Shown: piece after piece, positions 35,905 to 39,725 of the stretch
Position numbering within the stretch: position 1 is the first letter of the stretch
Layout: each line of letters opens with the position of its first letter
From: a virus
Lineage: Duplodnaviria; Heunggongvirae; Uroviricota; Caudoviricetes
Virus record (IMG/VR): IMGVR_UViG_3300029686_000225
Length of the DNA stretch: 48,664 bases
Direction: 5' to 3' (one strand)
Program-made: the position numbers and the translations under genes
The notes under the pieces: generated by a model
Told to the model about the DNA's origin: nothing
The model's input: the letters and a program-made list of their open reading frames with translations, nothing else
Databases searched by the model: none

Positions 35905-35936
35905 AAAAAACAAAACCCGCCGAAGCGGGTTTTTTG
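35905..35936. terminator. bidirectional intrinsic terminator after the methyltransferase gene
   Basis: CCCGCCGAAGCGGG hairpin flanked by A-run and T-run. Confidence 0.6.
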
Positions 35937-35947
35937 TACATATAGAA

Positions 35948-37045
35948 TTATGGTATTAATCCAGCTGTTCTTGCTTTATTAATATAATTTTTACAGTGGT
36001 TAGCCAAATACTCTGCAAACTTGCATGGAAGTGCATTTCCTATTATGACGCATACTTTATCCATCAAGGCTGTATCAAACACATAGTTATCAGGAAAAGT
36101 CTGTAGTCTAGCAGCTTCTCGAACAGAAATAGTACGCGTATCCTCAGGATGTCCATATCGCCCACGGCTTAAAGTTGTGCACCCACCTGTAATCGTAGGC
36201 GATACGTCATCCCAAAGCATACGACCATAAACATTACTAAATCCTTTATAGTCGCCTTTATGGCAATCTGGACGGAGTTCTTCGGGAATACACTCCCAAG
36301 ACATCCCTGGAACAGCCGCTTGTAACCGCTTTATATTGATCTCAGACAAATCCCTAACAATATGCCAACTCGACAATGGAAACTTCCCTTGCTTCTTAGC
36401 CTGTGAAAGGGTTAAGGGTTTTGGCATATCTCCAATAGCTTCTTTAACAGTTACCCATTTGGGTTTCTCTCTTCCATCCTTAGAGTGTGATCCATCAGGC
36501 AATGGGATGGCAAATCCTTTTCCTGCCAACAGAACAAGTCTTTTTCTGAACTGTGGTACACCAAAGTCAGCTACTTGCAAAACTCCATAATTAACTATGT
36601 AACCAAGTTTTTTCAATCTCTCAATTACTGGCGAAAGAAGATGATTTCCCCGGGAAGCTAATCCAGGAACATTTTCCATCATGATTGCTGATGGATTGGT
36701 TTCTTCAACCAACCGTAACATCTCGTTAATCAATAAATTACGAGGGTCCTCCCTTTTATACTTGGCAGTGAGACTAGTAAATCCTTGACATGGCGGGCAC
36801 GCAGATAAAAGATCTAAATGTTGCTCAGGGATAAGATTTAGGATATCACTCCCCTTTACAAACCGAATATCTTGAACAAAGAGTTTTGTCTCACGATGAT
36901 TTGCTTGGAAAGTAGCGGCGGCATGTGCGTCCAGTTCAACGGCAGCTTTGACATCAAACCCGGCCATTTTTAGTCCCATGGTTAGTCCCCCACCACCGCT
37001 AAATAGGTCAACTGCATTCAAACTGGTCACTGTTTTCTCACTCAT
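35948..37045 (-). CDS. DNA (cytosine-5)-methyltransferase
   Basis: Motif I DLFSGGGG, motif IV PPCQGFT, ENV, C-terminal GNALP. Confidence 0.85.
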   Translation of the reverse strand: MSEKTVTSLNAVDLFSGGGGLTMGLKMAGFDVKAAVELDAHAAATFQANHRETKLFVQDIRFVKGSDILNLIPEQHLDLLSACPPCQGFTSLTAKYKREDPRNLLINEMLRLVEETNPSAIMMENVPGLASRGNHLLSPVIERLKKLGYIVNYGVLQVADFGVPQFRKRLVLLAGKGFAIPLPDGSHSKDGREKPKWVTVKEAIGDMPKPLTLSQAKKQGKFPLSSWHIVRDLSEINIKRLQAAVPGMSWECIPEELRPDCHKGDYKGFSNVYGRMLWDDVSPTITGGCTTLSRGRYGHPEDTRTISVREAARLQTFPDNYVFDTALMDKVCVIIGNALPCKFAEYLANHCKNYINKARTAGLIP

Positions 37046-39149
37046 TATTTCCCAACTTCAACTGTTCTGCCTCATCCAAGAATTCTTGGTGAGTTTGAGT
37101 TGTCCTCAGCAAGAACCCTGCCCAATCAACGGGTGTTAGGCGTTTTTCTTCGATGTATGCAGTATAAGCTTTACGACGTGCCCCACTCAAGCGCTCCCCA
37201 TCACTTACCAGCGTAACGTGAAAATCAGATGCTATTGATTTAAAATCATTATGTCTCTCATCGTTCAAAAATTCCTCGAATGTTTCGAAGTAATTAATAA
37301 TACGATCCATTTCATCATTGGAAATATAATGATGTGGCTTTTTTATTTCAATTATTTGTAATTTTCCATCCTGACTAAACAATACAAAGTCTGGTCTTTT
37401 ATTTTTTTTATCAAAATCTATAAGAAATATCTCCTCACCAGTTTTCTTTTTATAAAATTTTTGAAACTCCCTTTTAAGCGTGGACAACGTTTTATTTGCT
37501 GTAACTGGGACCCATTGAGGGTTAACTAGCCACGGAGCGGATGCAATTAGATCTTGTAACTCATCTTCTGCTGTATCCTTTGCGTCTTTTAAAGACTCGA
37601 GACGCTCAATAATCTGAAGACGCTTTTTGACCTTTTGACCAAAACTAACGGTTTCAGCTAGTTGAGCCGTTGCTAAAATATCATTGAGAACATTGAGCGG
37701 TGTATCCGCTTTACTGGAAGCTTCTATTAACTTCTCATCTAAGGATTGTAATGGTGCTAACATAATACTTAACTGCACTAAATTCTCGAGTGCATCAGGA
37801 TCATGTAATTCATCACCTCGTAAAGATTTACCCAACAACTTGGCTATTTTTTTAGCCTGTGCTCGCATATCCTTTTGACTGGCTCCAGGGTATGCTTGCT
37901 CGACCTTATCCTCCACTTGCGCTAATTCGAAGAATTGATTCATCATATTATTTCTAAGGGGGTCGCGAGTTATTTTACCCACAAGTAAAATAACTTCTTG
38001 CCCCCAATTCTGAAATTGCGTTCCTAAATCATCAGACCATAGAATATCCCTTCTATCAGTTTGGATAAGATCTTCTTTTTCGTCTAACCAGTCAGCATGC
38101 AACTCACCTACCAAATATGAACGTATAGAGTGCTCTCCAGTAAAACCAGCTTTTCTATTAAAAACTGCTGTTTGCGCAGCAAACTTACCTCGGCAATAAA
38201 TTCTAACACCTGCCATTAACTCGTCCTTATAAGGCTCTTTTGCGTATGCAATCCAACCTAATATCGGGTAAGCTTTCCCTTCATGTTCAAAACCGGCCTT
38301 AACAATTGATGAACGCGTGCCGTCAGGATTAAAAGCCGCATAATCACTTAAATCCGTACAAGAATCCGTCGCAATACTTCCACTCATGGAACGAAATTCA
38401 ATTTTAGAGTTAGGCATAACAGGAACAGTAAACTCTCCGACCTCAACTTCATAGTCAGGATTAGATTTTGTTTTCGAAGTATCAATCAGTTTAATATTCC
38501 AGTTTTTACTCTTCACTCCAAAACGTTGTGAAAGCTGCCGAGATAAATCTTTTATTTCGCTAATTTTTCTATATTCAAAATCACTTAATATTATTTTAGT
38601 ATAGGTCCTGTCACTTAGTGTGCCGTCTAAATCCCCAGTTTCCGGTTTATAAGACACTGCAGTATCATCCATTATTTTTTCTTTATCTAGCCGAATATGA
38701 GCAACCTCATACCCTTCCTTTCCATCACGACTGATTTTTTCCCCACCGGCACTTATAATCTCGACCCTTTTACAAACACCAAAAGGTGCTAATTTCCCAA
38801 CGCCTTTCCGTCCCATGACTTTGCGGTGAAACACCTTCGAGGTTTCACCTCTTTTTGGATCCTTACGTCTTTCTTTGCCAACAACCAAATAAAAGTTCTG
38901 TAGTTCATCAGGCGCCATTCCGACGCCATTATCTTCTACTTCTATTGTGACATTTTTTGACCTGACAACACCATCCTGTCTAACAGCCAAGTATTGGCCC
39001 ATAGGTGCTTTTATAGTGACATTAGTCGCATCTGCATCGTAACTGTTAGATACTAATTCGGCTATAACAGCATAAGCCCTGTCATATAATTTCACACCTA
39101 ATTTATCTACTGTCATCCTTGATATCTGCATTTCATATTGACGCGCCAT
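37038..39149 (-). CDS. GHKL-type ATPase fused to a PD-(D/E)xK-like nuclease domain (candidate restriction/defence enzyme)
   Basis: N-terminal Bergerat motifs ELVSNSYDA, EDNGVGM, GRKGVGK; C-terminal RPDFVLF...LQIIEIKK; overlaps the methyltransferase start by 8 nt. Confidence 0.65.
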   Translation of the reverse strand: MARQYEMQISRMTVDKLGVKLYDRAYAVIAELVSNSYDADATNVTIKAPMGQYLAVRQDGVVRSKNVTIEVEDNGVGMAPDELQNFYLVVGKERRKDPKRGETSKVFHRKVMGRKGVGKLAPFGVCKRVEIISAGGEKISRDGKEGYEVAHIRLDKEKIMDDTAVSYKPETGDLDGTLSDRTYTKIILSDFEYRKISEIKDLSRQLSQRFGVKSKNWNIKLIDTSKTKSNPDYEVEVGEFTVPVMPNSKIEFRSMSGSIATDSCTDLSDYAAFNPDGTRSSIVKAGFEHEGKAYPILGWIAYAKEPYKDELMAGVRIYCRGKFAAQTAVFNRKAGFTGEHSIRSYLVGELHADWLDEKEDLIQTDRRDILWSDDLGTQFQNWGQEVILLVGKITRDPLRNNMMNQFFELAQVEDKVEQAYPGASQKDMRAQAKKIAKLLGKSLRGDELHDPDALENLVQLSIMLAPLQSLDEKLIEASSKADTPLNVLNDILATAQLAETVSFGQKVKKRLQIIERLESLKDAKDTAEDELQDLIASAPWLVNPQWVPVTANKTLSTLKREFQKFYKKKTGEEIFLIDFDKKNKRPDFVLFSQDGKLQIIEIKKPHHYISNDEMDRIINYFETFEEFLNDERHNDFKSIASDFHVTLVSDGERLSGARRKAYTAYIEEKRLTPVDWAGFLLRTTQTHQEFLDEAEQLKLGNNE

Positions 39150-39413
39150 TTAAATATCCTTCTAAAAGAGTATTTTTTGCTCAAAAAGGGGAAGTTTATG
39201 TTTGACTAACATAGCAAAAAAACTTTCATCTTCAAGAGGTTCACACCAAAAGAATTTACCTGGTTCACATAACCAACTGGATTAGTGTTGAGTTTTGGGT
39301 AAACCTGAGGATTGAGAAACCAGTACTGATAAATGGGTATCCGCTGTTTTCGTCCCTCTCCTGAGTTACCGTGTATTGGAATGGCATCGACACTATTACA
39401 TGGTAGGAGGTTG

Positions 39414-39548
39414 TATGTATGGTTTAGATATTTTGCATCTTTCACAGACACTTTTTACCTTTGCCATCTCTTTCCACATTGTTTCTCCGGAAATCACTAA
39501 CGGTTTGGCATTTGCAGAACCATTATCAGCCATAGCTTCTTGCCGTTA
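39414..39548 (+). CDS. small ORF (44 aa) with consensus RBS, hypothetical
   Basis: TAGGAGG 4 nt before ATG; MYGLDILHLSQTLFTFAISFHIVSPEITNGLAFAEPLSAIASCR; AT-rich surroundings. Confidence 0.3.
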
Positions 39549-39725
39549 ACTTCGGTTGCACCTGATTGTTGCTCACCTTCAGGCAATGATGGGTTATATA
39601 CACGGACTGAGCTCACTGCAGTAACAACCTTCCCAGTCAACTTACCTATGCTTTCAACCATCATCGTAGCGGCATACTTCCGAATTGCTATTATTTCAAT
39701 TCTGCACCGTTTGCTCAATGTAACG

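Follow-up and report, generated by a model that had tools for sequence, protein, structure and literature searches.

What is encoded by two overlapping genes carried between the replication genes and the antiterminator gene of a lambdoid Escherichia coli prophage, and to which known system do they belong? Both genes lie on the minus strand of IMG/VR record IMGVR_UViG_3300029686_000225, a Caudoviricetes sequence whose whole length of 48,664 nucleotides (nt) is here called the window. The first, R (37038..39149), encodes a putative restriction endonuclease, a 703-amino-acid (aa) GHKL-S5-helical-PD-(D/E)xK protein recognized as an open reading frame (ORF) with matches to NF050001, phrog_6203 and PADLOC REase_II. 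The second, M (35948..37045), encodes a predicted 365-aa cytosine-C5 DNA methyltransferase with matches to PF00145, TIGR00675 and PADLOC MTase_II. R is upstream of M in the same direction, and the two ORFs overlap by 8 nt (ATGAGTGA). We propose that they form a Type II-like restriction-modification (R-M) module carried as a moron, a reading to which we give a probability of roughly three in four. It was obtained by computation, from ORFs, motifs, folds, homology to the family named after R.HgiDII and R.BbrUII, strict linkage to a C5 methyltransferase and the co-divergence of R and M.

R consists of four parts, all encoded on the minus strand. The N-terminal GHKL (Bergerat) ATPase domain (aa 1–210; 38520..39149) matches Pfam HATPase_c_3 (E 1e-18), and its structural matches are HtpG, TRAP1, MutL and MORC. 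Conservation was scored in an alignment of 35 homologues of 52–95% identity, in which motif I (E31-x3-N35-x2-D38), motif II (D73-N-G75-V-G77-M), motif III (G113-R-K-G-V-G-K-L-A-P-F-G124) and motif IV (T184) are all invariant. A beta-rich S5/transducer-like domain follows (aa 217–356; 38082..38501) with an equally invariant R320-G-K322, of which K322 is a candidate for the gamma-phosphate lysine. Next come a long helical linker or clamp region (aa 373–570; 37440..38033), for which no family match was found and which we infer may serve dimerization or DNA recognition, and a PD-(D/E)xK nuclease domain (aa 575–703; 37041..37427). These limits agree with the secondary structure of an AlphaFold2 model of R (predicted local distance difference test (pLDDT) 74), which has a GHKL part at 1–210, a beta-rich part at 217–356, about 200 helical residues at 373–570 and an alpha/beta part at 575–700.

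The nuclease motif P586-D587...E601-I602-K603 and the upstream E561 are invariant in the 35 homologues. Structural matches to the nuclease part of the full model are N.BspD6I (8.6), Shedu SduA (6.8), FokI (6.4) and NucS (6.1). A separate model of residues 526–703 (pLDDT 77.7, predicted template modelling score 0.70) matches almost solely PD-(D/E)xK nucleases, with NucS (6.8), N.BspD6I (6.7), FokI (6.4) and E. coli SduA (6.4, at 21% identity) in front and AF1548, Cap4, LlaBIII, BstEII, EcoT38I and MspJI as further matches. The PADLOC REase_II match has an E value of 1.8e-34, and phrog_6203, labelled ‘unknown function’ in PHROGs, aligns to full-length R.

M matches PF00145 (DNA_methylase; E 6e-58) over profile positions 2–323 of 324, scores 154 bits on TIGR00675, above its cutoff of 100.65 bits, and matches PADLOC MTase_II with an E value of 9e-91. 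The catalytic motifs FSGGGG, PPCQ, ENV, QFRKR and GNALP are all present, with FxGxG, PCQ, ENV, QxRxR and GNxxP invariant in the methyltransferase alignment; judged by this motif set, M is a complete predicted cytosine-C5 methyltransferase. Its variable region is homologous to that of the HgiDII-type methyltransferases yet differs at many residues, so the recognition site of M and R need not be GTCGAC, the site of the BbrUII/HgiDII family where cognate m5C methylation blocks cleavage, and an attempt to read the site from the sequence was given up for the same divergence. The window holds five GTCGAC sites, an uninformative count for one 48-kb stretch. A sequence-only reading of the window had already described N-terminal Bergerat motifs and a C-terminal PD...EIK nuclease in a 703-aa protein whose gene overlaps a Dcm-type partner by 8 nt, and had taken the pair for an ATP-dependent R-M or related anti-phage system of the MORC-like GHKL type. 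The profile hidden Markov model matches, the invariant motifs, the predicted PD-(D/E)xK fold and the ORF coordinates bear out the R-M reading, as do the linkage and context evidence below; ATP dependence is a conjecture by analogy.

Linkage was assessed in 24 loci, comprising L001–L022 and two P2-like phages and spanning a Rhizomicrobium genome, a Desulfovibrio metagenome-assembled genome (MAG), a metagenomic contig, Citrobacter lambdoid prophages, IMG/VR contigs and the P2-like phages themselves. In every one of the 24, the gene for the GHKL nuclease has a C5 methyltransferase as its neighbour, whichever of the four R subfamilies and three gene orders the locus represents. Members of the window-type subfamily (48–100% identity) have R then M, adjacent or overlapping; the genes are convergent in the HgiDII type (L019, L021 and PhiR44_1 as scored equivalogs, L020 and L022 by similarity); and M precedes R in Yersinia phage P37. 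The two proteins also diverge in parallel: among related loci, M is 87, 65, 56 and 63% identical where R is 87, 62, 54 and 61% identical, and between subfamilies M retains 35–39% identity where R retains 23–26%, with the variable region of M homologous even at that distance. Linkage and parallel divergence of this kind are what co-evolution of R and M as an R-M pair would produce, and they speak against M being a chance neighbour or a phage methyltransferase with a role of its own.

Among named families, R comes nearest to NCBIfam NF050001, ‘BbrUII/HgiDII family restriction enzyme’, which aligns to R residues 5–697 over model positions 1–648 of 659. R scores 237.6 bits (E 2.9e-70), below the equivalog cutoff of 550 bits; true equivalogs reach 749–752 bits (L019 and L021, both viral contigs) and 751 bits (Escherichia phage PhiR44_1). 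A BLASTP alignment of R with L021 (752 bits on the model) gives 25% identity over residues 3–614, with D587, E601 and K603 opposite the D...ELK of L021, and over nearly its whole length R shares 23–26% identity both with the true equivalogs and with related proteins from Yersinia phage P37 and L003 that score below the cutoff. Given 238 bits against a cutoff of 550 and an identity of about 25%, R is best placed in a sister subfamily of BbrUII/HgiDII and not as an equivalog member. The PhiR44_1 gene, named ‘ParaMORC3’ by its depositors, belongs to the NF050001 equivalogs and shares 23% identity with R. The sequence-only reading could find no named defence family for the pair; this no longer holds, since by homology it can be assigned to paraMORC3 (Iyer 2008), as a sister of the BbrUII/HgiDII Type II restriction enzymes, and it matches PADLOC REase_II and MTase_II.

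R could instead be a stand-alone Shedu type I-D immune nuclease of the VcSduA kind that senses infection through its GHKL/clamp part, with M an independent phage gene, for instance one with an anti-restriction or epigenetic role. VcSduA of Vibrio cholerae, a GHKL plus DUF4263 protein ‘previously annotated as paraMORC3’, has the same architecture and defends as a single gene, and its defence is abolished by E27A in the ATPase and by K557A in the nuclease (PMC12137116). GHKL-fused DUF4263 proteins make up Shedu type 1D, and hundreds of Shedu genes lie within R-M loci (Gu et al., 10.1101/2023.08.10.552793); paraMORC3 genes also occur alone (PMC2292703). The nuclease fold of R resembles SduA in the structural matches, and PADLOC SduA gives a partial match (E 1.7e-5). 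Pfam SduA_C (PF14082) matches 24 of the 35 R relatives at E<=0.01, the best at 27.0 bits, just level with the 27-bit gathering threshold, over only profile positions 2–65 of 159, whereas the R of the window has no SduA_C match at E<=1. A stand-alone nuclease would, however, have to be reconciled with a methyltransferase that is adjacent in every locus of the sample and co-diverges with R through all subfamilies and gene orders, with the 8-nt overlap of the two genes, and with a nearest named family that consists of a pair of classical restriction enzymes. We therefore regard it as unlikely.

For enzymatic activity, recognition site, dimerization, the role of ATP and expression in the lysogen, we infer the following course for an R-M module. 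M would methylate the C5 of cytosine in a short specific site on lysogen DNA, and the nuclease domain of R, with D587, E601 and K603 in a Shedu/NucS/FokI-like PD-(D/E)xK fold, would cut DNA that lacks the M mark. R would be an enzyme of the paraMORC3 type, in which a MORC/MutL-like GHKL and S5 ATPase is tied to the nuclease through the helical region of about 200 aa. By analogy with the GHL ATPases MutL, MORC, GyrB and Hsp90, ATP binding would bring about dimerization of the N-terminal domains, and the dimer would shut as a clamp on DNA, held by the helical region, and so gate two nuclease domains or bring them into position to cut both strands. In a lysogen that expresses the module from its conserved leader, superinfecting phages and plasmids without the modification would be kept out, and loss of the prophage would, as with other R-M systems, carry a penalty.

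Several points weigh against the R-M reading. The NF050001 score of R falls short of the equivalog cutoff, the restriction function would be carried over from BbrUII/HgiDII across about 25% identity, and the characterized enzymes all lie outside the window subfamily. Public annotation of the R cluster offers only ‘ATP-binding protein’, the name used in RefSeq and by the Prokaryotic Genome Annotation Pipeline (PGAP), or ‘hypothetical protein’. HgiDII is an orthodox Type IIP enzyme that is not known to require ATP, so the ATP-clamp step is an analogy only. No controller (C) protein or small regulatory gene was found upstream of R, where conservation among cassettes is limited to the roughly 110 nt that precede its start codon, and an R-before-M order without a controller gene does not by itself account for how methylation would get ahead of restriction in a new host. 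An 81-aa ORF at 39206..39451 was considered as a regulatory gene and rejected, being not conserved among cassettes.

A more specific proposal, which we offer tentatively and still think doubtful, is that the window subfamily consists of ATP-gated restriction enzymes, in which cutting by a Shedu-type nuclease depends on prior closure of a MORC-like clamp on DNA, a step that cytosine methylation would veto. If this were true, the R family would connect classical Type II restriction (HgiDII) with methylation-independent Shedu I-D (VcSduA), and stand-alone Shedu I-D nucleases would be restriction enzymes that have lost their methyltransferase, or the reverse. The gate could then also account for the safe entry of a controller-less R-before-M operon into a new host.

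The setting of the pair is that of phage cargo. Over 36–39 kb the GC content is 0.38–0.43, against about 0.50–0.52 in the flanks. Upstream of the pair lie DUF977, an HTH_36 replication-like gene, a YdaT-like gene and an S24-peptidase repressor; downstream are a small ORF and then DUF968, RusA and antiterminator Q. This arrangement identifies the slot as the ‘nin’ region, between the replication genes and Q, of a lambdoid prophage of E. coli. The same DUF977/DUF968 slot of a related lambdoid prophage (L023, E. coli NZ_LR883050.1 2689600-2691900) holds Doc toxin, HokD and hypothetical genes in place of the R-M pair, and it is on this account a moron hot spot with variable cargo. The moron between replication and Q genes that had been read from the letters is thus confirmed by base composition, flanks and alternative cargo. 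The DUF968 protein just downstream of the cassette (window 34497-35552) also matches the putative HNH nuclease profile HNHc_6 (E 1e-7).

This mobile, low-GC carriage in phage defence hot spots also speaks against reading R as a repair or nicking enzyme, in which a MutL-like ATPase and a NucS/EndoMS-like nuclease would act as a Vsr substitute on the T:G mismatches that arise when the 5-methylcytosine made by M is deaminated. Such a role would fit the lack of a vsr gene with M in the window and the occasional recruitment of such proteins to repair raised by Iyer and colleagues (PMC2292703). The sister family is, however, named for enzymes with demonstrated site-specific restriction (NF050001; PMC2441816), and the NucS-like similarity extends to FokI, BspD6I, BstEII, EcoT38I and SduA, and hence marks the fold and not the function. 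We consider a repair enzyme very unlikely.

The full cassette, at 99.5–99.6% identity, is found in 21 of 5,426 complete E. coli genomes, chromosomal in every case, and also in IMG/VR prophage contigs; versions 87–92% identical occupy the same nin-region position in Citrobacter, Serratia and other enterobacterial prophages. The DUF977 flank is found without the cassette in >1,000 E. coli genomes. The subfamily of the window is large: >1,600 proteins among the candidates scored are related to R at E<=1e-5, an exhaustive search of 50%-identity representatives gave 2,394 clusters at E<=1e-3 and 217 at E<=1e-30, and full-length relatives among such representatives form an unbroken series between 53% and about 27% identity. 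That the cassette is an inactive remnant, with R decayed and the methyltransferase alone at work, would be in line with this rarity in E. coli, with truncated R variants in the protein cluster and with a split M in one genome, but we consider this very unlikely: both window ORFs are full length and keep every invariant residue, the three substitutions of the window R relative to the common variant (R153Q, A271T and S424G) all sit at variable positions, and PGAP annotates the copies as intact.

Two further arrangements were seen among the relatives. L003 (Rhizomicrobium MAG JBBCGL010000001.1) has an R-M pair and, after it at L003:9771-11753, a paralogue of the GHKL-nuclease gene (660 aa, NF050001 262 bits, D...VEIK), such that one C5 methyltransferase is flanked by two GHKL nucleases. 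In the P2-like temperate phages PhiR44_1 (L024, PV340563) and P37 (L025, MT239398), the GHKL-nuclease/Dcm pair lies beside the gpA replication gene; the ‘ParaMORC3’ gene of PhiR44_1 (751 bits) is convergent with its Dcm gene, and the P37 nuclease scores 329 bits on NF050001.

At the downstream junction, a symmetrical intrinsic-terminator-like hairpin (35912..35933, assigned to neither strand) begins 15 nt past the M stop codon. Read from 35933 to 35912 it is AAAACCCGC-TTCG-GCGGGTTTT, preceded by an A-run and trailed by a T-run, with a free energy of -14.2 kcal/mol (z -2.6 against shuffles). The same 32–34 nt are found in phages and E. coli genomes without the cassette, and the hairpin is for this reason phage backbone and not cassette cargo; in a megablast of sequenced phages, this backbone terminator was the sole match and no cassette was found. 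The strong bidirectional terminator that the sequence-only reading saw behind the pair is thus real as a symmetrical hairpin and belongs to the phage.

Upstream of R, the cassette leader (39150..39265, minus strand) is defined by alignments in which about 110 nt are conserved among the E. coli, Citrobacter and L012 cassettes. It contains an AAGGA ribosome-binding site and a weak promoter-like element, TTGAAG (39235..39230), a 16-nt spacer and TGC-TATGTT (39213..39208), which matches 8 of 12 positions plus TGn and was not reported by a consensus promoter scan; it may act as the promoter of the module. An internal promoter for M within R was considered and rejected: the best site (37351..37323, 10/12) overlies the catalytic I-E-I-K...H-Y-I codons, has an altered -10 in Citrobacter and owes its promoter-likeness to coding constraint on those codons. 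Promoter-like sites in the region show no excess (10 found against 9.6 expected). No structured RNA in or around the cassette matched Rfam at gathering score. The ~460 nt between the DUF977 stop codon and the conserved leader (window 39265-39725) hold no convincing ORF and no Rfam match; this stretch is common to the E. coli copies and absent from the Citrobacter and L012 cassettes.

Elsewhere in the window, downstream of Q, an AraC-family regulator (237 aa) stands beside tRNA-Lys(ttt) and tRNA-Met(cat) genes in an accessory prophage region (31842-32735). In the early region, an 801-aa protein (44953-47358) carries at its C-terminus an Rv2179c-like/RNase T-type 3'-5' exonuclease domain (E 3e-69), which follows an N-terminal 600 aa without assignment.

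The kind of system proposed here was already known: it had a computational description in 2008, biochemical work covers HgiDII and BbrUII, and functional data on the stand-alone relative VcSduA followed in 2025; the R-M pair adds a member to a known class and does not found a new one. What is new is a distinct, poorly annotated subfamily with its own gene order, and an explicit link among the labels ‘paraMORC3’, ‘BbrUII/HgiDII family’ and ‘Shedu I-D-like’. There is also an annotation gap: R, on homology probably a restriction enzyme, is called ‘ATP-binding protein’ in RefSeq/PGAP and ‘unknown function’ in PHROGs, and the wider family counts about 2,400 clusters at 50% identity. Pairs of a GHKL nuclease and a Dcm-type enzyme are recurrent cargo in the defence hot spots of lambdoid and P2-like temperate phages. 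A MORC/MutL-type ATPase thus sits inside an enzyme family that was first described as ordinary Type II restriction and that resembles the Shedu I-D nucleases in architecture. The copy in an E. coli prophage lends itself as a model for the biochemistry of such enzymes.

Among the known systems compared, the N-terminal ATPase modules of eukaryotic MORC and of MutL proteins are 12–18% identical to R in sequence, and their C-terminal parts are unlike. The mobile PcaRCI R-M system was considered as a relative and set aside, its enzyme being McrBC-like and unrelated. VcSduA, as published, shares the N-terminal GHKL domain, a clamp-like middle and a C-terminal DUF4263-like PD-(D/E)xK nuclease, but acts alone without a methyltransferase, whereas the R of the window is paired with M. 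ParaMORC3 was defined computationally by Iyer, Abhiman & Aravind 2008 (PMC2292703) as GHKL, S5 and a C-terminal restriction-endonuclease (RE)-fold nuclease with E-D-ExK, the paraMORCs being without the MORC-specific motif. By that description R shares the GHKL domain with intact motifs, the S5 domain and the nuclease; the pair shares the occurrence in R-M operons with DCM methylases and the sporadic, laterally mobile spread centred on Proteobacteria; and the DNA looping with helicases of the 2008 paper contrasts with a window locus that has no helicase. Orlowski & Bujnicki 2008 (PMC2441816) placed R.HgiDII among the Type IIP enzymes, recognized a GHKL domain at its N-terminus, left its C-terminal domain without fold assignment, and noted other putative GHKL restriction enzyme subfamilies, one of them with a PD-(D/E)xK C-terminus. 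M.BbrUII is an m5C (5-methylcytosine) methyltransferase homologous to M.HgiDII according to PMC5867850, in contrast to the N6-adenine methylation given in PMC5829577. HgiDII and BbrUII share with R the collinear GHKL domain, second domain, helical region and D...ExK nuclease, and with the window pair a homologous C5 methyltransferase partner (33–37% identity, with a homologous variable region) and carriage by temperate phages, PhiR44_1 having a true equivalog. They differ in layout: the HgiDII-type genes are convergent in four metagenomic viral loci and in PhiR44_1, whereas those of the window are co-directional and overlapping, R then M.

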